From: an uncultured Chloroflexia bacterium
Lineage (GTDB): Bacteria > Chloroflexota > Limnocylindria > Limnocylindrales > CSP1-4
Reading direction: 5' to 3'
Length of the DNA: 64,000 nt
Assembly (NCBI GenBank): GCA_963727005.1
Contig: CAVSEO010000001.1
Span: 13,085 to 77,084 of the forward strand
The position numbers and the translations under genes are program-made. The notes under the pieces are model-generated. The model did not search any database and had not been told where the DNA came from. It saw only the letters and a list, made by a program, of their open reading frames with translations. Each line of letters opens with the position of its first letter. The first letter of the stretch is position 1. This document shows positions 6,656 to 62,405 of this stretch, one piece after another.

Positions 6656-6791
6656 CGCTTCAGGCTAGCACCGAGGCCATTCGACGCCCGAGAGAGGCGG
6701 ATCCATCGCGCCGGCCGCGACAATCGGGTCGTGACCACGCGGGCGGGCCCCGACGGCGCGGCCGGTGTTAGGATTCTCGCAACCGAATACG

Positions 6792-6878
6792 CCTCCGGGG
6801 AGCGCCACGGGCGCTGAGAGTGCGGCTCCAGCCGCAGACCCGCCGTACCTGATCTGGGCAATACCAGCGAAGGAAGCA
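6792..6878 (+). promoter_or_regulatory. TPP (THI-box) riboswitch
   Basis: Read directly: CCGGGGAGCGCCACGGGCGCUGAGAGUGCGGCUCCAGCCGCAGACCCGCCGUACCUGAUCUGGGCAAUACCAGCGAAGGAAG. It contains the conserved CUGAGA, ACCC and ACCUGAUCUGG..AAUACCAGCG elements, about 70 nt upstream of thiD. Confidence 0.85.
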
Positions 6879-6944
6879 GGCTCGACCAAGCCCTCGCCGC
6901 ACTCCCCGCCGAGTGCGGCGAAATGTGTCTTGAGAGGTCGAGAA

Positions 6945-50999: not shown

Positions 51000-52948
51000 C
51001 TAGGAGCCCGGAGGCGCCGGCAGATCCATCGGCGTACCGAGCGGGTCGGTGCCACCGCCGAGCGCCATCGGAACGAGAGGGCTGCCGATGCCGTAGGCCC
51101 AAACCTTGAGGTAGTAGACGCCCGATGCCAGGGGGGCGCCTCTCGCGTCCACGAAACTGAACGGCTTCGAACCCTGGGTCAGTCCATGGCGGGTGACGCC
51201 CGACGGCACGACGATCGCCCCATCGGCCGGGCCTCCGCCCACCGGGGAGTCCGAGCCTTCCTCTACCGTCGGGTCGCCCGCGCCGACCTGCCACGCCAGC
51301 ACGAGCTTGCCGCTGGCATCGCGCTGGTAGGCAGCGGCCCGGAACGCCGTGGGGCCGGTGCCGAGGACGACGCCCAGCGGATAGCGGTTGTCGACCTCGA
51401 CCGAGACGTCGACCGCATCCGCCTGAACCGGCGTGCCACCGCCGATCACGACCGTCGGTCCGGCCGCGGCCGCCCGAGCGGTCACCACCGCCCGAACCTG
51501 GACGAAGGACGATCCGGCCATGTTCGGCAGTGCCCAGAAGGCGGTGAAGGCCACGGCTCCGCCGGCCAGCCCGAGCGCCAGGATCGTGCGACCGCGACCG
51601 GATGTCATCGGATCGGCCGTCCGAGCGAATCGGGTCCGTTGGGGCGCATCTGTTCTGCCGTCCCAGGCCCCTCGCTGGGTCGCGCGGCCGCGGCTCCGCA
51701 GCCGATAGCCGGCAATTCCGAGCAACGCCAACAGGATCGCCGCAACCAGGACGGACACGATCAGGTCGGATGACGAACCGCGGCCGGGCGGGGTTCCACC
51801 GACCGCCCCTGCGGCCGCCCCACCGACGCGGGAAGGCTGCTCCGTGGGCGTAGGAGCCGCGGTGACCGCGGGAGTGGGGGTTGGGGCGTGGTTTACCGGA
51901 CCTGCGGCTCCGGTGAGCAGCGCCAGCACCGCCAGGTACCGCTCACCGTAGTTCTTGCTGGGCTCAACGTACGAGTTCTCGGTGTACTCGTTCCAGCTGA
52001 TCACGGCCATTCCGTCCGGGTTCGTGGCCAGAGCGTCGTCCCACGCCGCGGTGAGGGTCGCGCCGTTGCGCCGGTCGACGACAGTGGTCCCGCCGTTCAG
52101 ACGCGCGTCGAAGCCCGCGGCGGCCGGTGCGAGCCACAGCCCGTTGTCGTTGTGGACCGCCGTCGCGAGGTCGCCGAGGCGCTTCTGGTAGCCCGGCGTG
52201 GTCAATGGATCGGCCGACGACCAGTAGTAGGCGTCGCCGTCGAAGAGGGCGGCACGGGGCTGATACTCGGCCGCGCTTCGTTGTGAGCCGAGCAGCAGCA
52301 CCTTGTTCGGCGCACCGATCGAAGCGCGCACCGTTGAGATGTCGGCGTCGCTGAATCGCCACGTGCCCGACCAGATGACCGCCGGCTTGCCGAACAGGTC
52401 GAAGACCGGGTCGGATCCGTACTGGTCCTCGAACCACTGCAGGTCCGATTCCACCTGGGAGGCCGGAATCGGGTTTCGGTTGACGTCGAGGCCTTCGTAG
52501 ATGAGCACGAGCTTCAGGCCCTGGCTATGACACTCCGCCACAAGCTCGGACAGGGCCAGGTTCAAGTCGGGCGTGCTCTTCCAGGACACGATGAACGCGT
52601 CCACGCCGGACTCCTTCGCCCAGGTCACCTGCTGCTTTATCACCGCGGGGCTCGTGCTCGAGTACGCGCCAAGAACGGGGACGTCCGTCTTGGCGTGAGT
52701 CCAGCTCCCCGAGTTGAACCACATGTAGTAGTAAGCCAGGACGGGTGGGCGGGACGCGGCGCCCGGAGAGGGCCGGCGGCGCCCGAGGGACCGGCAGAGC
52801 CCGAAGGGGCGGCCGCGGAGGATGGCACCGGGCTGGTCGACGGCGCCAGCCCAAGAGAGCTGATTCCGGCGATCGCCAGGAGGAGCGGTATGGCCCGAGT
52901 CCAGCCCAGGTGTCCGGGCCCGGAGCCACCGCGTCGCGATCGATCCAC
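51000..52948 (-). CDS. membrane protein with GH99-like domain, Pro/Thr linker, TM segment, and a C-terminal part that may be a separate secreted beta-rich protein; one frameshift as assembled near 52750
   Basis: GTG 52948 after GAGG with signal anchor AIPLLLAIAGISSLG (frame of ORF 52640..53494). Then in ORF 51000..53069: LAYYYMWFNSGSW, FIVSWKS, LVLIYEG, VISWNEYTENSYVEPS, HAPTPTPAVTAAPTPTEQP, TM LIVSVLVAAILLALLGIAGY. An internal MTSGRGRTILALGLAGGAVAFTAFWA begins at an ATGA (about 51606-51609). Confidence 0.7.
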
Positions 52949-52965: not shown

Positions 52966-54364
52966 TCAGGCTGTCGCCTGGGAGCCGCTGTTGGCCCTGC
53001 GCCGGATGCGCCTCGAGACGACGACCCAGCGCGCGATGGCGGCGGTACCCACGAGGAGGATGATCCCAAGCACCAGCGCGACGTCCAGGTACGTGATCAC
53101 CCGCAGGGTGGAGTCCTGCACCTTGGACAGGGCAACGGGCGTCGGCGGCGAATAGGCGACCGAGCTCAGGGCGAGCTGGTACTGGCCACGCGGCAGATTC
53201 TCGAAGGTGATCCGGCCGGCCGAATCCACCCGCTCCTGAACCGCGACGCCGTCCGGGTAGGTCAGCTTCAGCTGTCCGGAGACCGGGGTACCGAACAGGG
53301 CATCGCGCGTCTGCACCGTCATGCTGTAGAGCAAGAGCTGGATCGTCCAGACGCCGTTCTGAGTCGGCGTCCAGGCCTGCTGGCCGCGGTTGACGACTTC
53401 GGCCCCGTGGATCGTGACGGAGAGCGCCCGATACGTGGTTGGCGATGCGGTGAGCGAGGTGCTGAACCGTACCGCCGAGGCGGCCGTCCACCACACATCT
53501 TTTGCGCCGGTCTGTGAGTTCAGGACGATGTCGTCCGTACCGGTGCCGGTGCTGAATTGGGCCTGAGAGATGATCGTCGGATCGACGGGCTGGCTATTCA
53601 GGTCGACATACTGGATGGTTGCCCGGTACGCGACTCGTGATGCCCATCACAAACGTGGCCGGACCGACGACGTCGATCGTCCGGTTGGCCGTATAGACGT
53701 TGTCCAGCCAGCGCACGAAGCTCGCCTTGACCGTGGCCGTGGCAGAGATGTCGGGATTGAGGTCGACCGTCAGCTGGTAGGCGCCGGTCTTCGGCACGGG
53801 CAGCGCCGCGACCCCGTCGGGCCCGGTCAGCGCCGTCTCCGTGCCGAGCGTGAAGCGCAGGTCCGGCTGGGCCGGGACCGTCCGGAACTGGATGCCCGCG
53901 GCCAGGATCGTGAGAGTCGCGTTGGCACTGGATGCGGCAAGGCCACGAGCGCCACCGAACGTAACCTGGACCGCGTAGGCCCGAGCCTCGCTGATGTCCT
54001 TGGCCGCGATTACCAGCGGGACCTTGCCGGTAGTGTCGGTCTTGTCGCTGCGCACCTGATTGCCGTCGAGAAGGAGCGACAGGTGCTCGCCCACGATGGG
54101 CTGGCCGCCCTGTGTGGTCAGCGATGCACCAACGGTGACGTCGTTGCCCAGGACGCTGCCCGTCGGGACCTCGAGCTTGATGACCGTGGCGACGATCGGA
54201 ATCGGCGCCGCGGCTCTGGTGCCGGCCAACGGAATCGGCTGGCTCGAGAGAGCCGCCGCCGCAGCCGGGGCCAGGGCCAGCCCGAGAGAGCAGGCGAGTG
54301 CCACCGCCGCGGTAATGGAAGCGACCCTGCGCCTCGGCGACAGGCTCGCGGAAAGCTCGTGCAT
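52966..54364 (-). CDS. secreted beta-sandwich (Ig-like / carboxypeptidase-regulatory-like) protein with C-terminal TM anchor; one frameshift as assembled near 53630
   Basis: Signal peptide ITAAVALACSLGLALAPAAAAA in ORF 53594..54364. Continuation in ORF 52966..53496 with GRITFENLPRGQYQL and anchor VALVLGIILLVGTAAIARWVVVSRRIRRR. Confidence 0.6.
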
Positions 54365-55879
54365 TAGCGGGACCTCGCGCTTCGCTCGGGCGCCTGGCGG
54401 AGCCAGGGCCGCGCGATGAATGAGCCGCAGATCACCGCGAACGCGACGACGACGGCATAGATGGCGAGCAGGATCGACCGATTGGCGGCCTCGGTAGTCG
54501 TTGGGCCCGGGAATGTCTGGGCCGGGAAGACCGGCGCGGCCGGTGGACGACCGAGGTCGAGAGCGTCGGCGATGCTGTTGGCGGTCGCGTCGCGCGCCGT
54601 GAGCGGCTGAAGCGACCAGTTGTCCTCGATGAACTTGAGAATCGATGTGAAGTCGTATGTGGTGGTGTCGATCAGCCCGCTCCGTGCGTAGGGCGAAACG
54701 ATGATCGCCGGCACACGGAACCCGTAGCCGTCACTGTCGACCTGCGGGGGCGGGACGTGGTCGTACCAGCCACCCCAATCGTCCCACGTGACCGCCCAGA
54801 CGCTGCTGTCCCAGGCCGAGCTGCGCATCAGCGACGTGGCCGTCGTTACGGCGAAGGACTGGCCCGCGGTGATGTCGCCGGGCGGGTGCTCCGACAGGCC
54901 GCTCGGAACCAGATAGGCCACGGCCGGGAGCTGGCCCTTCTGCAGGTCCGTGTAGTACTGCTGGAGGTCGACGATGTGCGACGAGAGCGCCGGGTCGTCG
55001 ATGAAGCGGGCGTAGTTGAGGAGCGGAGCCCAGATCAGCTGGGACTCCTTGGGCGTGGTGGTGCCGGCCGCGGCGCTCGTGGCGGCGGCGCTCGTAGTCC
55101 GGAAGGTGATACTGGGGTCGTAGTTCTGGACGTAGAACTTCCAGGAGACGCCCGCCGCCTGGAGCCGGTCGAAGATCGTGGGGAAGTCGTACCCGGCCGC
55201 TGGGACCGGTCCGCCACCGCGGGCCGCGATCGAGTACATGTGGTTGATCTGGCTCGAGCCCATGGCCGAGCTGAAGAAGCGCGTCGCCAGCACGTATTGA
55301 CTGGCCAGGTTGTAGTAGACGGGCAGATCCGTGCCGTCGTAGTAACCCACCGCCAGGTTGTTGGGCAGGTTGTACTGGTCCTGCGCGGCCGAGAAGCCGT
55401 CCATTCGTCCGCCGTCGAAGGCTCGGAGGGCCGCTTCGGTGCTGTGGTTCAGGTCGACTGTGCGATGGCTCGAGAGGTGGAAGGGCGCGTAGCACTCGCT
55501 GGCCGATGGGGCCGCGCGTCGGAGACGGAGTCGGGCTCGGCGTGGCCTTGTTCTTGGAGCTCGCGGACGGCTTGGGCGAGCCTGACGGCGCCGGGGTAGG
55601 GCTCTTGGTGGGGGTGGGATTGGGCACGGGCGTGGGGATCCAGTTGGGCTGGCAGGTGTTCGGCTCCGGGTCCACGCCCGGGAAGGCGGAGAAGTAGTTG
55701 TCGAACGTGTGGTTCTCCTGCATCAGGAAGACCACGTGCTGGATGGGCTTGCCGGCCGCCGCCGCCGGAGAGGCGAACGCAAGCGGCGCCGCCGCGATTC
55801 CGGCGACCATCGCCAGGCCGGCAAGGCGTGCCAGCCGGGGGCTGTACCGGAACGGGGACCGGACGGAGAAGAGGCTCAC
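54364..55879 (-). CDS. phosphoesterase family protein (PF04185: phospholipase C / acid phosphatase type) with internal Pro/Thr/Ser insert and C-terminal TM anchor; one frameshift as assembled near 55500
   Basis: Signal peptide, then [23 protein letters not shown] and [24 protein letters not shown] in ORF 54731..55879. Then [59 protein letters not shown] and anchor [20 protein letters not shown] in ORF 54364..55404. Confidence 0.8.
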
Positions 55880-58800
55880 GGCCGGACCTCGTAGATCTGT
55901 ATGACGACCTGCGTCGACACCTTGCCGGACGCGTCTCGCGTCACGGCCGACTGCTGGTAGACCAGCGTGCCGTGATATCGGGTCACGTAGGTCTTGGTCA
56001 ACCCATCGAAGAAGGGCGAGCGCTGGGCCGACCAGATGTCCGTGGCGATGTACTGGATCTGGTTCAGCTGGAGCGCCCTGTCCGGGTTCACGATCGGGTC
56101 GTAGGCCGGGTTGCGGCGAATCGGGTTCGGGCTGACCGAGAGGCCGTAGGCCCGTCGCTGCCCGTAGAACTCGACGATGTTGGCCAGCGTGGGCCCGGTG
56201 GTCAGGAACGCCGCCCCCTGGGGGACGTTCTCCTTGATCCAGAGCCCCGCGTCGCGGCCACCCGGCAGGCCGCCGGTTCCGGCCAGTGACCCACTCATCG
56301 AGGGCGAGATCACGGCTTCCGCGGTCGGTATGGCGATGCTCATGAGCGTGATTGCGAGGAAGGCCGCGGTCGCGACAACGGGCGCCCGGCGCGAGTCTCC
56401 GAGGCGCTCAGGCAGGCGGCTGATGACCGGTCTCAGGGCGCTGCCTGTGAGGTCGGAAACCCTGCGCTGCAGTCTCAACCGGCGAGATGACGGGGCGGCA
56501 GCCGGCGGGGCGGCGGCCAGCAAGCGGTCGAAGGCCGGCCCGTAGGCCGCCCGCGAACTGGTCGCGGCCGTGAGCATGCGGTCGAATGACACCCCGACCA
56601 GGATCGCCCCAGCGGGCGCGATCGGCAGGAGGTACTGGAAGCCCTTGACCGGCCAGAGCTCGAAGAACGCGAGTGGAACCATGATCCAGGCCAGGATCAG
56701 CTTGTCCTCCCAGCCGCCGCGCCGGAGCACGTAGACAAGCCCGACGATGGCGGTGATGAGAACGAGAGGGCCCATCGCCCCGGGAAGGATGTCCGCGTAG
56801 AAGGTCCAGGTATGGTTCGGCTGCCGCAGTACCTCCCAGGCCACGAAGGAACCGGCGGCGTTGGTGCCCTTGCCGATCAAGATGGCGGCCGGATAGGGCG
56901 CCACGGCCATAACGAATAGGGCGATGGCGAGGATCTGGCGGCGAGCCGAGATCCGGATCTCGGGGGCGAGCAGAAGGAAGCTGATCGCGACGGGGACCAG
57001 GAGGATCGCCGTCTCCTTGGCGAGCACGGTGAGCCCGATGGCGAAGGCCGCGCCATACAACCAGCGGGACTGCCTGCTCCGAGCGTATCGGGCAAGCAGG
57101 TAGATGCTGAGCAGGAACAGCGTCGTTTCCGGCCCGTCGAGGAGGGCCTGCCGGGTGACGATTACGTGATAGGGCATCACGGCCATCACCGCCGCGGCGA
57201 TGAGCCCGACTCTGCGGTTGTACAGCAGCGCGCCGGTGGCGTACGCGAGGCCGATCGCGGCCAGGCCGAAGGCCACCGAGATCAGTCTGGGCGTGACATC
57301 GTTCACGCCGAACAGGCGGAACGGAATTGAGTTGAGGAACTGCACCAGCAGGGGATGAGCGCGGAAGATGGCGAACAACGGGCCATAGGTCGGGTCTCCG
57401 GCGAGCGACGCGCCCTGACCCATGTAGACCGCTTCGTCGTTGTTGAAGCCGATCGACCCGATGGCCCACAGCCGAACCGCCGCCCCTACCAGGAGCGCGG
57501 CGCTGAGGGCCAGCCAAACCCGGGCATTGGCCCGGACGCGACTCACGGCCCGGTCGCGGATCGCTCCGAAGTCGGGCACGAGAGGGAATCCGCCGGCCAG
57601 CCGGAGGCCGCCCATGGGTTCGATCGCGATGGCCTCGGCTATGCCCGCCGAGGCCGCCCCGCCGCCGCTCCTTTTCGGATCATCGTCTCGGGGAGGCTTC
57701 CTGCGCTTTCTACGGTCCGGGGAAGTTGACGCGACCGGAAAAGGGCGCTCACCTCCCGCGCTCGTGCCGTAGGTATCGCTGCCGACGGTTGTTGCGTAGG
57801 AGAAGGCCGCCGCGGCGACTTCGGCGTGGGCCTGTGCCGGAACCGGCAGACCGGCCGGGGCGTAGCCTCCGGCTTCGGCGGCCGCCACCGTGACGGGCGC
57901 CTCGGGCTCGATCGGGATTCCGACCGGCTCGCGGTCGTTGGTCTCGATCGGGATGCCGACCGGCTCGCGGTCGTCGTCGGTGCCGAGGATCAGCTTGGGG
58001 AGCAACTCGCCCCACTCGTGGCCGCGGACTCGCAGCCGCCACACCGTCACGTTCGAGATCGCCTGGGTGAGGAGCCGCCTCTCATGGTCTCGAAGCTGCT
58101 CGTAGTTCTCGCCTCCGATCACGAGGTTCGGGGCGAGAGTGGCGAACGGCGGGAAGCCGTAGGCGTCGTCGGTGTTCTCGATCAGCTGGTCGATCGCCGC
58201 CTCGAGCTCGACGCGTTCCTGGACTGGCTCGCCGCGCTCCATCAGGAAGACGTTGGCGATGGGCGTCTCGGTCGCGATGTGGGCCGGCAGCAGCTTGGTG
58301 ATGTGGTACTTGGGCGGGGGAACCATGATCTGGAGGACGCTGTTGATGGACATGATCGGCACGTTGAGGCTGCCGAGGCCCTTGCCCACCGTGCGGCCGC
58401 TCTTCGAGTGGACGCGGCTTTGCACCTGCAGCTGCATGCGCTTCCTGGGGCTGAGCGTGGAGGCGTCCACGGCGCGGGTCATGGTGTGATAGGAGAGCGT
58501 CATCGGCTTGGGGAAGGTCCGGACGAAGCCGGCCGGGTCGATGATCGCCATGTCGTCGGAGATGAACCGCCAGTGGCGCTCGCGCACGAGGTTGATGACG
58601 GTGCTCGTCTTGCCGGTGTCGGTCTGAGCGGAGAGCAGGGTGGCCTTGCCTTCGACTTCCAGCCCGGCCGAATGGAGCAGCACGTATCCCTTGGAGACGA
58701 GCACGAACCGCAGCAGCGCCTCGACGACGTTCGTGTAGAGGACGTGCCGGGACAGGCCCAGGAGCGGCGACGCGTCAATCGTGATGGGGTTGCCCATGGT

Positions 58801-59496
58801 CACGTTGAAGTCGGCCCCGAGGACGCCCAGGTGCTCCCTGTACGTGATGCGCTCGCCATCGCGCCGCATCCGGACTCGAAGGTTCGGCAGCGCGCCCACC
58901 CGGTGGACGCGGATTCGGATGTCCGGAGGGGTGGTGAGTTCGGTTCGGAAATAGGACAGTTCGGGAAGCTCGGAGTCCGAGTCCAGCCGGAGCAGGCCGC
59001 CGATGTCATAGCGGTACTTCGGGGCCTTCACGGCCGACCCGCCAAGCTCGGCCGAAGCGAGGTCGCCTTCCTTCTTTCGCCAGACCCATCCGTCCGAGAC
59101 GGCGAAGCGCAGGACGAAGAGGGCGGCGAGAGTGATGAGGTTCGACGACGCCGAGCCCAGCCGCCCGAAGTCGGTAAGCGCCCACAGCATCGGCACGCGC
59201 AGGCCCAGCAGGGCGACGTTCATGCCCGCGTAGGCGAGGTAGCGGACCGTGGCCCGTCCGGCGAAGCGACGACCCCTGAACGACCAGAACTCGTTGCCCG
59301 CGAAGTTCCAGGTGGTGGAGAAAGCCGTCGCCGCGAAGGCCGAAGCGACGAACCAGACGCGCAGGTTGTCGGTCAGGGCGACGTAGACGATCTCGTTGAC
59401 GAGGATGCCGCTGAATCCCACCAACAGGAACTTGGTGAGAGCGGCCACCCGAGGCGAGACCGATGCGGATCTGCCCTGGCGTGTGAGGACCTTCAT
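55876..59496 (-). CDS. 1206-codon fusion ORF: GtrA-like 4-TM module, HprK-like P-loop kinase domain, disordered linker, GT-C (ArnT/PMT_2-like) glycosyltransferase with periplasmic C-terminal domain
   Basis: Real start taken as ATG 59496 (MKVLTRQGRS...). The 371 codons upstream in ORF 55876..60609 overlap the GT2 gene out of frame. GtrA-like: FLLVGFSGILVNEIVYVAL...WNFAGNEFWSF. Kinase: VLLHSAGLEVEGKATLLSAQTDTGKTSTVINLV...RFISDDMAII. GT-C: AVRLWAIGSIGFNNDEAVYMGQG...LAKETAILLVP plus about 11 further hydrophobic segments. ATGA overlap with the downstream phosphoesterase. Confidence 0.8.
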   Translation of the reverse strand: MKVLTRQGRSASVSPRVAALTKFLLVGFSGILVNEIVYVALTDNLRVWFVASAFAATAFSTTWNFAGNEFWSFRGRRFAGRATVRYLAYAGMNVALLGLRVPMLWALTDFGRLGSASSNLITLAALFVLRFAVSDGWVWRKKEGDLASAELGGSAVKAPKYRYDIGGLLRLDSDSELPELSYFRTELTTPPDIRIRVHRVGALPNLRVRMRRDGERITYREHLGVLGADFNVTMGNPITIDASPLLGLSRHVLYTNVVEALLRFVLVSKGYVLLHSAGLEVEGKATLLSAQTDTGKTSTVINLVRERHWRFISDDMAIIDPAGFVRTFPKPMTLSYHTMTRAVDASTLSPRKRMQLQVQSRVHSKSGRTVGKGLGSLNVPIMSINSVLQIMVPPPKYHITKLLPAHIATETPIANVFLMERGEPVQERVELEAAIDQLIENTDDAYGFPPFATLAPNLVIGGENYEQLRDHERRLLTQAISNVTVWRLRVRGHEWGELLPKLILGTDDDREPVGIPIETNDREPVGIPIEPEAPVTVAAAEAGGYAPAGLPVPAQAHAEVAAAAFSYATTVGSDTYGTSAGGERPFPVASTSPDRRKRRKPPRDDDPKRSGGGAASAGIAEAIAIEPMGGLRLAGGFPLVPDFGAIRDRAVSRVRANARVWLALSAALLVGAAVRLWAIGSIGFNNDEAVYMGQGASLAGDPTYGPLFAIFRAHPLLVQFLNSIPFRLFGVNDVTPRLISVAFGLAAIGLAYATGALLYNRRVGLIAAAVMAVMPYHVIVTRQALLDGPETTLFLLSIYLLARYARSRQSRWLYGAAFAIGLTVLAKETAILLVPVAISFLLLAPEIRISARRQILAIALFVMAVAPYPAAILIGKGTNAAGSFVAWEVLRQPNHTWTFYADILPGAMGPLVLITAIVGLVYVLRRGGWEDKLILAWIMVPLAFFELWPVKGFQYLLPIAPAGAILVGVSFDRMLTAATSSRAAYGPAFDRLLAAAPPAAAPSSRRLRLQRRVSDLTGSALRPVISRLPERLGDSRRAPVVATAAFLAITLMSIAIPTAEAVISPSMSGSLAGTGGLPGGRDAGLWIKENVPQGAAFLTTGPTLANIVEFYGQRRAYGLSVSPNPIRRNPAYDPIVNPDRALQLNQIQYIATDIWSAQRSPFFDGLTKTYVTRYHGTLVYQQSAVTRDASGKVSTQVVIQIYEVRP
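57907..57978 (-). repeat. tandem 36-nt duplication (2 mismatches in the first 32 nt, last 4 nt diverged) encoding (D)REPVGIPIE twice in the fusion-protein linker
   Basis: CTCGATCGGGATTCCGACCGGCTCGCGGTCGTTGGT followed by CTCGATCGGGATGCCGACCGGCTCGCGGTCGTCGTC. Confidence 0.85.
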
Positions 59497-59618
59497 TGAG
59501 AGCACTCCCCGAAGATGCGGTGGCGGATGGGACGAGCTGGACGATGACTGGATGGTCGGAGCGAGAGGATTGGCGCTTGGGCGGATGGAATGGTGCGAAA
59601 CCTCACGTCGGCCATGAG

Positions 59619-60377
59619 CTACGTCCGGCTCGGTCTGGCCACCGGGACACGGCCTCGCACGGCCGCCCATCGAAGCGCCACGACGACCTTGAACGCCTCC
59701 AGGACGATCGACCGGCTCATCTTCGAGGCGCCCTCTCGGCGTTCCTCGAACGTGATCGGGACCTCCAGGATGCGGGCGCCGAGACGGTGAGCCCGGAAAG
59801 TCATCTCTATCTGGAATGCGTAGCCCCCGGCGTGCACGTCGTTGAGGTCGATGGACTCGAGGAGATCCACGCGCCACGCCTTGAAGCCACCGGTGAGGTC
59901 GCGCTCGGGCAGGCGCAGGACGGCCCTGGCGAAAATGCTGCCGCCCTTGCTGATGAATCTCCGGACGGGATTCCAGCGCGGGATGACACCGCCCGGGACG
60001 TATCGGCTGCCCAGGACCAGGTCTGCGCGACCGTCGATGATCGGCTCGAGGAGGGAAGGCAGGTAGCGCACTGGATGGCTGAAGTCCGCGTCCATCTGGA
60101 CGACGATCCCGGCCCCTCTGGCTTCCACGCTGCAGAACCCGTCCACGTAGGCTCGACCGAGGCCCTGCTTGGATTCGCGGTGGAGCACGGCGATGTTGGG
60201 CTTCGCCGCCGCCATCTGGTCGCCCAGAACGCCCGTGCCGTCCGGCGAGTTGTCGTCGACGATCAAGATCGAGGCCTCGGGCACCGTCCCCAGAATCGCC
60301 TCGGTTATCGGTCCCAGGTTGTCCTTCTCGTTGTATGTGGGCAGGACCACCCAGATGTGTGAATCGGCGGGGCGCAC
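59619..60377 (-). CDS. GT2 polyprenol-phosphate glycosyltransferase (Ppm1/DPM1/GtrB-like)
   Basis: VVLPTYNEKDNL, ILIVDDNSPDGT, VQMDADFSHP, GSRYVPGG, GFKAW. Typical dolichol/polyprenol-phosphate mannose (or glucose) synthase signature. Confidence 0.9.
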   Translation of the reverse strand: MRPADSHIWVVLPTYNEKDNLGPITEAILGTVPEASILIVDDNSPDGTGVLGDQMAAAKPNIAVLHRESKQGLGRAYVDGFCSVEARGAGIVVQMDADFSHPVRYLPSLLEPIIDGRADLVLGSRYVPGGVIPRWNPVRRFISKGGSIFARAVLRLPERDLTGGFKAWRVDLLESIDLNDVHAGGYAFQIEMTFRAHRLGARILEVPITFEERREGASKMSRSIVLEAFKVVVALRWAAVRGRVPVARPSRT

Positions 60378-60842
60378 CGGATCCTCCTCTTTCGTGGCAG
60401 ACCAGTAGTCGGGCTAGGGCTAGATGGCGTCGGGCGGCACCGCGCGTCCGATTTCGAGGTCGGACTTTACGGCCAACGCGCCCCCAGAAGATGCACAGGG
60501 CCGATTTGTTGCGCCCGGTGTGCAACCGTCGCGGCAGGCGGAAGGGGGGACCGGCGTACCAGCTGAAAGGGCGGGAACAATCCCGTCTGAACGAGTAGTC
60601 AGGCGCCACCCCTGAGGGTCGGCCACGACGGGCAGGTCAGATTCCCCGAACCGGGCACCCGGGGATACGCACGCTCCCACCCCAATGGAGCGGCCCTTCT
60701 GGACGGTAGCGGAGGCCGGATGGGGCGAGGCATACTCAGTCGGTTCGAGCCCCGTGGGCATCCGCTGCCGCATGCGGATTCAGGGGTACCGTCGCCTCGA
60801 CCACCCAGCCCGTCAGCACCGCAACGCCATTGGAGCTTCCAC

Positions 60843-62405
60843 ATGTCCAGCTTCCGACCCGGACGGAGGACCCGAGCCCTGCCGCAGATCGCCCGCCTGG
60901 TTGCGGTCGCGTCTGTCGTGGCTCTGATCGTGGCGTTCACGTCTTCCGCGAACGCGGCCACGTCGGTTTCGCTCAAGCCGGTCGCCGACTCCTGGGTCAA
61001 TGCCCAGAGCCCTGGAACGAATTACGGCTCCAGCACCTCCCTTCGCCTCGATGGCTCGCCGGTCTGGAAGGCCTACCTCCGTTTTGACATGGGCTCGACC
61101 CTCGGAACGATCACCGGCGCCTCGCTGAAGCTCTACCCCAACAGCTCCAGCAAGGCGGGCCTGTCGGTCCATCGAGTCGCAAGCACGACCTGGTCGGAAA
61201 GCTCCGTCACGGCCGCAAGCGCGCCCGCCATCGACGCGGCAGCCGTTTCCTCCGGTCCGCTGACGGCCGGACGCGCCGCCAGCATCGACGTCGGTGCGCT
61301 GGTCAGCGGCAACGGTCTCGTGAGTCTCGCCCTGACGGACAACGACGCCACCGCGATCAACCTGGCCAGTCGCGAGTCGTCGCACCCGCCCCTTCTTGTC
61401 CTGACCGTGGTTTCCTCCACTCCCACCCCGACCCCGACCCGACTCCGACGCCGACGCCAACCCCGACTCCAACGCCGACCCCGACTCCCACCCCGACGCC
61501 AACCCCGACTCCGACCCCAACGCCAACCCCGACGCCGACTCCGACCCCCACGCCTACCCCGACCCCCGACGCCCACTCCGACCCCGACCGCGCCTTCAGG
61601 CGGTCCGGTGAGGGCCGCTTTCTACTACCCGTGGTTCCCGGAGGCCTGGAACCAATCCGGCCTGGACCCGTTCACGCACTACCATCCTTCGGCCGGCTTC
61701 TACGACGGCTCGAACAAGTCGATCGTCGCCCAGCAGATCCAGGCAATGCAGTACGGCAAGATCAGCGTGGGTATCGCCTCCTGGTGGGGCCAGGGCTCGG
61801 CGACCGACGCCAGGTTCCCAACCCTGCTTTCCGTGGCCGCCGGGACCGGCTTCCACTGGGCTTTCTACTACGAGCCCGAAGGCACGACCGACCCCTCGCC
61901 AAGCCAGATCGCCTCGGACCTCGCCTACATCAATAGCCGGTACGCCTCGGACCCGAGCGTGTACAAGATCAACGGACGCCCCGTCGTCTTCGTCTATGCC
62001 GGGCCCTCGGACGGCTGCGGGATGGCGAGTCGATGGGCCCAGGGCAACGCTTCGGCCCAGGACTACATCGTCCTGAAGGTCTTCGCCGGCTACCTGGGCT
62101 GCGCCGACCAGCCGAACAGCTGGCATCAGTACTCGCCGGCCGTGGCCGAAGACCACCAGGCCGGCCGCAGCTTCAGCATCAGCCCCGGGTTCTGGCTCGC
62201 GACGGGCAGCGTGCGACTGGCCCGAGACCTGACTCGCTGGCAGGCCGATATCCGGGCCATGGTTGCCTCGGGTGAGCCGTGGCAGCTTGTCACCACCTTC
62301 AATGAATGGGGCGAGGGGACCGCCGTGGAGAGCGCCACGGAATGGGCCAGTGCCTCGGGCTACGGGTCTTACCTGGACGCGCTCCACAACGACGGGGCGC
62401 CGTAG
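60843..62405 (+). CDS. secreted DNRLRE-domain, (Pro-Thr)n linker, GH99-like domain protein; two compensating frameshifts as assembled inside the linker
   Basis: Signal peptide [26 protein letters not shown]-type domain ([28 protein letters not shown]...AYLRFD). The linker reads TPTPTPT then [14 protein letters not shown]... (out-of-frame PT repeat) then TPTPTPT. C-terminal part has [44 protein letters not shown]. Confidence 0.8.
61419..61589 (+). repeat. (CCGACN)n microsatellite-like array encoding a (Pro-Thr)n linker
   Basis: About 170 nt of ACC/ACG/ACT-CCG/CCC/CCA alternation. Antisense ORFs translate to GVGVGV. Confidence 0.9.

Follow-up and report, generated by a model that had tools for sequence, protein, structure and literature searches.

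What might a nucleotide-binding domain be doing between the two membrane modules of a glycosylation system? The question is raised by a 64,000-nucleotide stretch of DNA from an uncultured Chloroflexia bacterium of the Limnocylindria (contig CAVSEO010000001.1, positions 13,085 to 77,084; hereafter the window), in which a single minus-strand open reading frame (ORF) runs without interruption from an ATG at 59496 (MKVLTRQ...) to a stop codon at 55876. The 1206-amino acid (aa) product consists of a GtrA/DPMS-type domain with four transmembrane (TM) helices at aa 22-139, a P-loop domain at ~155-505, a linker of ~145 aa and a GT-C glycosyltransferase at ~651-1206. This protein is one fused form of a widespread, uncharacterised cassette found in soil bacteria and some archaea, an assignment of architecture and cassette membership that we regard as close to certain, and the cassette probably adds a phosphate-dependent step to cell-surface glycosylation. 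The features on which this argument depends are as follows.

55876..59496, minus strand: fusion ORF of 1206 aa, with GtrA domain, PEPCK/HprK-fold P-loop domain, linker and GT-C
59080..59433, minus strand: GtrA/DPMS-type 4-TM domain (aa 22-139), matching PF04138 at E 1e-15
57982..59034, minus strand: predicted cytoplasmic P-loop domain of PEPCK/HprK fold (aa ~155-505), assigned from alignment A1 (19 diverse copies of the domain, mean column identity 62%), AlphaFold2, Foldseek and TIGR04352
58606..58629, minus strand: variant Walker A A290-Q-T-D-T-G-K-T297, invariant in A1 and aligning to the HprK P-loop
58552..58557, minus strand: Asp314-Asp315 (SDDM), acidic pair, conserved at 95% or more and lined up with ADD of 1ko7
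57547..57981, minus strand: low-complexity linker (aa 506-650), presumed cytoplasmic, with a basic pre-TM end, variable among relatives
57907..57972, minus strand: two DREPVGIPIE repeats (aa 509-530), the motif also occurring in relatives
55879..57546, minus strand: GT-C (aa 651-1206), a TM region followed by a C-terminal alpha/beta domain (~1080-1206), assigned from PMT_2, AlphaFold2 and Foldseek
57433..57438, minus strand: Asp687-Glu688 of the first external loop (FNNDEAVY), invariant
59619..60377, minus strand: separate gene for a GT2 polyprenyl-phosphate-hexose-synthase-like protein of 252 aa, matching PF00535 at E 1.8e-25

Before any function can be discussed, it has to be considered whether separate gtrA, kinase and GT-C genes could have been merged by indel errors in an error-prone assembly, since the neighbouring genes of the window do contain frame breaks, and the modules are indeed separate genes in some lineages. 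Judged by its homologues the fusion is genuine, and we consider such a merger hardly conceivable. The ORF is read in a single frame throughout when searched by tblastn with intact orthologues, a protein from an independent metagenome-assembled genome (P0001) matches it along 100% of its length with 97% identity, and the same ~1200-aa length and layout recur in 40 independent protein clusters (at least 60% identity, drawn from NCBI, JGI, ENA and Logan assemblies) at 60-97% identity and 99-100% coverage, with the domain junctions aligned in frame among the relatives. The frame breaks around the fusion are real, as the original prediction had reported, with frame switches, among them one at ~50088 in a GH99-like gene, seen in the same kind of tblastn search; conserved residues flank each of them, and the 3.6-kb fusion ORF has none. 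This pattern suggests that the neighbouring breaks are single-base indel errors or very recent decay, and an error-prone assembly is likely because the breaks resemble single-base indels in conserved coding sequence. The start codon at 59496 is preceded by GGGGAG and is supported by the full-length homologues, which are ~1170-1290 aa long (most 1185-1227) and cover 99-100% of the 1206-aa product. An open frame continues upstream to 60609, giving a nominal 1577-aa ORF in the mechanical ORF list; we rejected this extension (59497-60609, minus strand) as a gene, as it is an out-of-frame read across the GT2 gene that yields Arg/Pro/Gly-rich low-complexity nonsense. A 557-aa antisense ORF also lies opposite the fusion gene (57826-59499, plus strand), and both it and the upstream open stretch are by-products of the 68% G+C content and not genes.

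The original prediction, made from the nucleotide sequence alone, had described one uninterrupted ORF encoding a single polypeptide of three domains, and profiles, AlphaFold and Foldseek bear out the single chain and all three domain calls; the motifs that it quoted are likewise all present, namely VLLHSAGLEVEGKATLLSAQTDTGKTST, RFISDDM, the two DREPVGIPIE copies, RRKRRKPPRDDDPKR (aa 595-609) and FNNDEAVYMGQG (684-695). Some of its boundaries and labels need revision. The soluble region that it put at ~480 aa has a folded part of ~350 aa (155-505), the remainder (~506-650) being linker, and the periplasmic tail given as 150 aa is a C-terminal soluble domain of ~125 aa (~1080-1206). Its term "flippase module" for the GtrA domain goes beyond the evidence, in that in relatives GtrA serves a type-III-DPMS-like GT2 as its TM domain, and translocation of lipid-linked sugar by GtrA is itself only proposed in the literature.

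Membership of the GtrA family is nevertheless clear, with PF04138 (GtrA_DPMS_TM) scoring 58.4 bits against a cut-off of 26.1 and aligned over model positions 1-117 of 117, that is, along the entire 4-TM domain of ~117 residues. The GT2 gene is found where it had been predicted, 122 nt upstream, and is separate from the fusion; its product has weak matches to AglJ, Dol-P-hexose transferase and PpgS, and shares 76% identity with its orthologue in the related locus L081. GT2, GtrA and GT-C are therefore encoded together here as in a three-component system, and this grouping is conserved in relatives. Basic residues are found at the N-terminus and after TM4 of GtrA, and a further basic segment precedes TM1 of the GT-C, while in some relatives the cytoplasmic GT2 is fused directly N-terminal to GtrA. 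Because four TM helices bring the chain back to the cytoplasm, the P-loop domain would be cytoplasmic, and because of the basic pre-TM1 segment and the homology to ArnT and STT3, the Asp-Glu loop and C-terminal domain of the GT-C would be outside; the positive-inside rule and the GT2-fused relatives both agree with this predicted topology.

The middle P-loop domain (aa ~155-505) and its standalone or fused homologues, for which we use the name mid, are the most unusual part of the protein. The AlphaFold2 model of the domain (predicted local distance difference test, pLDDT, 88.7; predicted template-modeling score, pTM, 0.87) gave 50 Foldseek matches in the PDB at E 1e-3 or better, all of them to PEPCK or HprK/P, which upholds the HprK/PEPCK-like P-loop fold that had been proposed for it. 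The best match is ATP-PEPCK (E 1e-6, TMq 0.47, ~380-430 aligned columns), followed by HprK/P catalytic domains (1kkm, 1jb1 and 1ko7, at E 4e-4 to 1e-3). We take the fold from the model and the Foldseek matches because sequence and profile searches of the PDB with the domain returned only chance-level matches (5gro, E 0.64; L7Ae, E 0.28; 1ko7, E 0.84), though the weak alignment to 1ko7 still lines up the His, P-loop and Asp-Asp positions. Among curated families, TIGR04352 (HprK-related kinase A) aligns to aa 269-335 at E 5e-8 but scores only 32 bits where the cut-off is 200, ScmC (TIGR04249) reaches 16 bits against 125 and TIGR00679 (hpr-ser) 15 bits against 240, and PF07475 has no match in the window protein and only 16-27 bits against a cut-off of 33.3 in relatives. 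PF27840 was considered as a dedicated family and rejected, as it is the ScmC family and its matches are only weak or faint in precomputed annotation. By these profiles the domain falls below every curated family threshold and is without a family model of its own.

The conservation within mid is extensive. Alignment A1 contains the invariant blocks LLHSA, AxTDTGKT, FxSDDM, PKPxTxSxHT, QSRxHSKxGR, PPPK, ERG and NT[DE]DAYGFPP, and in a wider set of 76 near-full-length representatives clustered at 50% identity conservation is 95% or higher for the residues H275, D293, G295, T297, D314, D315, K330, H363, R368 and K396, and 90-95% for K296. The combination that marks the PEPCK-like superfamily, a conserved His, the Walker A Lys/Thr and Asp-Asp, is thus found in both sets. 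In the alignment Asp314-Asp315 is the equivalent of the metal-binding 'ADD' acidic pair of HprK, and we take it to correspond also to the 'GDDEH' pair of E. coli PEPCK. The domain is therefore a PEPCK/HprK-fold P-loop domain with an intact predicted nucleotide- and metal-binding set (His275, K296/T297 and Asp314-Asp315), and we think it probable that it is an active nucleoside triphosphate-dependent enzyme. Altogether, conservation reaches 90% or higher at ~55 positions and 95% or higher at 37 of these; many of the ~55 are polar or basic, such as K330, H363, R368 and K396, which fits a specific substrate site.

Mid differs from both of its structural comparators. HprK/P, HprK_rel_A (TIGR04352) and ScmC share with mid the P-loop core of His, Walker A and Asp-Asp in that order, but mid has TDTGKT in place of GxSGxGKS, contains a helical insertion of ~80 aa, and carries the additional conserved motifs PKPxTxSxHT, QSRxHSKxGR, PPPK and NTDDAYGFPP; its context is membrane glycosylation, whereas that of HprK is the phosphotransferase system or peptides that are modified after ribosomal synthesis (RiPPs). 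ATP-PEPCK (E. coli PckA: 6com, 1aq2 and 1k3c) is the best structural match over both lobes and has the same His/Walker A/DD spacing, but identity is ~10%, there is no match to a PEPCK family, and mid has 350 aa compared with 540. The oxaloacetate-binding motifs of PEPCK were not found in mid, though no formal test was applied.

Between the P-loop domain and the GT-C, the linker has no Pfam or NCBIfam match, and its length and sequence differ even between close relatives. The tandem REPVGIPIE duplication that had been reported here is confirmed by the two copies at aa 509-530, and the motif, (D/E)REPVGIPIE, is conserved in sequence among relatives (P0003-P0007, P0039), in which it occurs in two to five tandem copies; it contains no Ser or Thr.

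The C-terminal module matches PMT_2 (PF13231) over aa 714-866 (E 2.5e-21, 77 bits against a cut-off of 26.1) and PMT at E 3e-9 (37.1 bits against 22.7). The AlphaFold2 model of aa 650-1206 (pLDDT 82, pTM 0.82) shows the polytopic region and external C-terminal domain of the GT-C_A fold, and Foldseek matched it to STT3, AglB and ArnT with E values from 1e-10 to 5e-9 (STT3 at E 1e-10; ArnT with template-modeling scores of 0.62/0.63), with ALG9/12, PglB and AftA next. D687 and E688 are invariant in alignments of 26 and 7 GT-C sequences, so the loop-1 acidic motif named in the original prediction stands, and according to the model the module is a GT-C_A enzyme. It shares the fold, first-loop acidic motif and external C-terminal domain with the ArnT/PMT_2 type (5f15) and with STT3/AglB, from which it is set apart by its own subfamily motifs (G[FLM]N[SNG]DEAVY and RAHPL) and by the phosphoesterase gene that always follows it. 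The 'GT39' label given by NCBI is not established, because no MIR domain, a feature of true PMTs, is matched by Pfam in the fusion protein, and because the PMTs are structurally distant, Pmt4 and Pmt1-2 ranking 26th or lower in Foldseek (E 3e-3), behind STT3, ArnT and ALG.

In a scan with one genome per species, the P-loop domain was confirmed in at least 587 species genomes, belonging to Chloroflexota (Limnocylindria), Dormibacterota and many Actinomycetota, with Leekyejoonella antrihumi and Micromonospora yasonensis as cultured examples; a copy is known as well from the cultured Streptomyces diastatochromogenes. An exhaustive search of representatives gave 248 clusters at E 1e-30 or better, one of which, a cluster of standalone mid (P0173), has Bathyarchaeota and Nitrososphaeria among its member names, and a metagenome scan seeded on the partner GT-C gave at least 572 stretches. 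The modules are joined in a Rosetta-stone-type pattern: mid occurs standalone (~350-440 aa), as GtrA-mid, mid-GtrA, GT2-GtrA-mid (with GT-C separate) or GT2-mid-GtrA, in the longer GtrA-mid-GT-C of the window (with GT2 separate), in the four-way fusion GT2-GtrA-mid-GT-C, and in a fully unfused operon of all modules. The architecture, for which the original prediction knew of no described system, is hence not unique in the databases, with the same three-part protein in 40 clusters and its modules split or fused in hundreds of genomes; what stands is that it is uncharacterised. It is deposited under generic names ('glycosyltransferase family 39 protein', 'putative flippase GtrA' and similar), which is why we consider it deposited but not characterised, and we found no description of the architecture or the cassette in the open-access full-text literature, a search that leaves such absence unproven.

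What travels with these modules was read from loci of three bacterial phyla and from contigs of archaeal type, where the conserved order is (GT2, GtrA), mid, GT-C, a PF04185 phosphoesterase of the phospholipase C (PLC)/AcpA type and an anchored beta-rich protein. An independent metagenome scan was seeded on the GT-C subfamily through its Asp-Glu loop motif, with counts taken over informative loci. Mid is directly upstream of the GT-C at 41 of 46 loci, and the phosphoesterase is directly downstream at all 49. The phosphoesterases and partner proteins have signal-peptide-like N-termini and mid does not; the partner, of ~400-580 aa, has a C-terminal TM helix where checked (L087 and L088). Identity between the Limnocylindria locus and an archaeal-type contig from Guaymas is 40% for mid, 37% for the GT-C, 38% for the phosphoesterase and 23% for the partner, and on this comparison the four core cassette genes are orthologous. 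Genes of the GH71/GH99/WbsX-like, CBM96 and purple-acid-phosphatase-like types are often nearby, and some loci have extra phosphate-related genes, such as a second AcpA-like gene in one and a NAGPA phosphodiester glycosidase in another. The corresponding genes in the window are listed here.

54364..55879, minus strand: PF04185 (PLC/AcpA-type) phosphoesterase, its start overlapping the fusion stop (GTGA), frame broken at ~55380-55506
53050..54244, minus strand: orthologue of the cassette's beta-rich protein ('IgTM') that is secreted and anchored to the membrane, with a frame break at ~53638
51831..52724, minus strand: GH71/GH99/WbsX-like cassette gene, a truncated match with a frame break at ~51831
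60720..62405, plus strand: divergent CBM96 and GH99-like secreted protein, syntenic in L081
48334-49110, plus strand: second AcpA/PLC-like phosphoesterase, syntenic with L081
50091-50981, plus strand: another GH99-like gene, syntenic with L081
62550-63644, plus strand: metallophosphoesterase-like gene, syntenic with L081

The NAGPA-family gene (PF09992) is at L090:6293-7534, just upstream of a standalone P-loop gene, and fits a theme of phosphodiester-linked glycans. In an actinobacterial locus, the partner protein (L082:15464-17050) contains long Ser/Thr/Pro-rich repeats (…PTDSAPPTDSSVPTDS…) typical of O-glycosylated linkers, and this protein is a candidate glycosylation acceptor. Elsewhere in the window there is a TPP riboswitch (RF00059) at 6786-6893 on the plus strand (65 bits, E 1e-10); the window yielded no tRNA genes.

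Two cassettes, L087 and L088, consist of standalone mid, GT-C and phosphoesterase without GT2 or GtrA. In L088, which is from Guaymas sediment, an MprF-type TM protein (PF03706) takes the GT2/GtrA place, and the order is MprF-like, standalone P-loop, GT-C, PF04185, partner and purple-acid-phosphatase-like. Because of these cassettes we rejected the idea that the tie of mid is with GT2-GtrA and not with the GT-C, and their existence links mid to the GT-C rather than to flipping. They also bear on the notion that mid is a motor for ATP-driven, GtrA-mediated flipping of the lipid-linked sugar, in favor of which it can be said that most members have mid fused directly to GtrA, on one side of it or the other; given that L087 has a standalone mid without GtrA and L088 the MprF-type protein instead, and that the PEPCK/HprK fold is a phosphotransferase fold and not that of a transport ATPase, a motor seems to us very improbable.

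For mid as a putative enzyme that handles phosphate at the membrane, the following sequence of events can be proposed. The separate cytoplasmic GT2 would load a hexose onto polyprenyl phosphate, with the GtrA/DPMS-type 4-TM domain as the membrane and translocation partner of this synthase; at the inner face of the membrane the P-loop domain would phosphorylate the polyprenyl-P-sugar before export, giving a cassette-specific phospho-sugar donor, or alternatively would act on a lipid acceptor; the ArnT/STT3-like GT-C, its Asp-Glu loop outside, would transfer the sugar to an extracytoplasmic acceptor; and the secreted PLC/AcpA-type phosphoesterases and metallophosphoesterases would process the exported phosphorylated product. 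With a cytoplasmic enzyme and an outward-facing GT-C, the candidate shared substrates are the membrane lipid or the proteins themselves. Precedents are ArnD and the deacetylase step of the PpgS/Rv3779 pathway, each acting on a monosaccharide linked to a lipid after the GT2 step and ahead of the GT-C. As a whole, ATP-dependent phosphorylation of a lipid-linked intermediate before export is a tentative proposal, which may well prove wrong; the specific substrate of the P-loop domain is a guess, and the coupling of phosphorylation to sugar transfer that the original prediction put forward is purely inferential. The fuller scheme, in which a PEPCK-fold kinase of a lipid-linked sugar or lipid acceptor, phospho-glycosylation by the GT-C outside the cell and remodelling by phosphoesterase and GH71/99-like enzymes would together form one system of Bacteria and Archaea, is doubtful in that complete form.

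Several observations weigh against this proposal. The nearest sequence relatives of mid (HprK_rel_A, ScmC and HprK/P) are protein or peptide Ser kinases and not lipid or sugar kinases, the P-loop is atypical in that TDTGKT places an Asp where HprK and PEPCK carry Gly, and the secreted phosphoesterases might themselves be substrates of glycosylation, or might serve to scavenge phosphate without any relation to a kinase product. Moreover, a minority of the GT-Cs are fused to an ATP switch of the ParA/MinD type, which is no small-molecule kinase, and this hints at a regulatory role. In two loci the orthologous GT-C (L165:5098-7587; L150:2864-5329) carries at its N-terminus a deviant-Walker-A ATPase of the ParA/MinD/BcsQ type as a fusion (AAA_31, E 4e-39; motif KGGTAKTT), and the same phosphoesterase and partner genes follow. 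There is no mid, GtrA or GT2 within ~5.9 kb upstream of the fused GT-C in L165, and no mid in the ~3.7 kb of upstream sequence available for L150. It was therefore rejected that mid is always present with this GT-C. On these sequences it looks as if one cytoplasmic P-loop module had been exchanged in place for an unrelated one, though the contigs are short and mid may lie elsewhere.

Such variants suggest the possibility that mid is an HprK-like Ser kinase/phosphorylase or an ATP switch that would control the activity, assembly or placement of GT2, GtrA and GT-C while leaving sugar and lipid unmodified, by analogy with bacterial tyrosine (BY) kinases or BcsQ on other polysaccharide machines. 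That the sole sequence-family matches of mid are HprK-type kinases, enzymes known to act on Ser in proteins or peptides, points in the same direction as the ATPase fused to the GT-C in L165 and L150, but the short ParA-fused contigs, from which a mid encoded elsewhere would be missing, reduce the weight of the latter. Further, neither the linker nor the GT-C N-terminus nor the partner tail shows an obvious conserved Ser or Thr that could be a target, and the ~55 highly conserved positions and the PEPCK-like two-lobed fold resemble a substrate-specific enzyme. We consider a regulatory role a serious rival, nearly as probable as the lipid-linked proposal, though on the unlikely side.

The strict co-occurrence of the kinase-like domain and the PF04185 phosphoesterase around the same GT-C could also reflect recycling, in which the phosphoesterase would cleave a lipid-phosphate bond outside the cell (of polyprenyl-P, a polyprenyl-P-glycan or a phospholipid anchor), the alcohol would flip back, and the P-loop domain would re-phosphorylate it, as in DgkA/DgkB diacylglycerol recycling or with undecaprenol kinase. 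PF04185 members are phospholipases C or acid phosphatases, and the P-loop domain is tethered to the membrane beside an enzyme that consumes polyprenyl phosphate, both of which would suit such a cycle. However, with polyprenyl-P supply being a housekeeping function, a cassette would hardly need a kinase of its own for it, the GT-C reaction itself regenerates polyprenyl-P, some cassettes have no local GT2, and we know of no lipid kinase with the PEPCK/HprK fold; this makes recycling improbable. Phosphorylation of a lipid-linked intermediate, tentative as it is, is the reading that we prefer as the most likely of these.

Three-component glycosylation systems include GtrA/GtrB/Gtr(type) of Shigella phages and ArnC/ArnD/ArnEF/ArnT. 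PpgS, Rv3632 and Rv3779 form another lipid-carrier glycosylation system (PMC11127046). Like the cassette, the Gtr, Arn and PpgS systems have a GT2 synthase of the polyprenyl-P-sugar encoded together with a GT-C and a small membrane protein of the GtrA type, and the Arn and PpgS pathways include a modification of the lipid-linked sugar at the cytoplasmic face between the GT2 and GT-C steps. Unlike the cassette, in which the modules are fused in many combinations, these systems are not known to have a PEPCK/HprK-fold P-loop domain, an obligatory secreted PF04185 protein or an anchored beta-rich partner. In the type-III DPMS of Pyrococcus furiosus, the GT2 catalytic domain is joined to a GtrA-like 4-TM domain (PMC5526996, PMC12992685), and relatives of the window protein of ~800 aa and of 1300-1500 aa begin with this same GT2-GtrA arrangement; PfDPMS stops after the TM domain, whereas in the window the GT2 is separate and GtrA runs on into the P-loop domain and GT-C. 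The statement in the original prediction that HprK-related kinases act on Ser residues of lasso peptides is confirmed for HPr-kinase homologues (PMC8498205), and in pseudomycoidin the kinase-installed phosphate is subsequently glycosylated (PMC8498205). Taken with these comparators, the cassette is a variant of three-component lipid-carrier glycosylation to which a nucleotide-dependent module and secreted partners of an obligatory kind are added.

The usual way for bacteria to decorate surface glycans outside the cell is a GT2/GtrA/GT-C system, and to our knowledge no described version has a nucleotide-dependent enzyme. If a lipid-linked sugar is phosphorylated by mid, this would be new lipid-carrier biochemistry that would explain an envelope polymer in these groups, and mid would be the first lipid-linked-sugar kinase and would add a new substrate class to the HprK/PEPCK superfamily; if its role is regulatory, it would represent a new control principle for GT-C enzymes. 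The carriers belong to abundant and poorly understood soil phyla, the family needs a dedicated model and a correct name, and the cultured carriers make the function of the P-loop domain testable.

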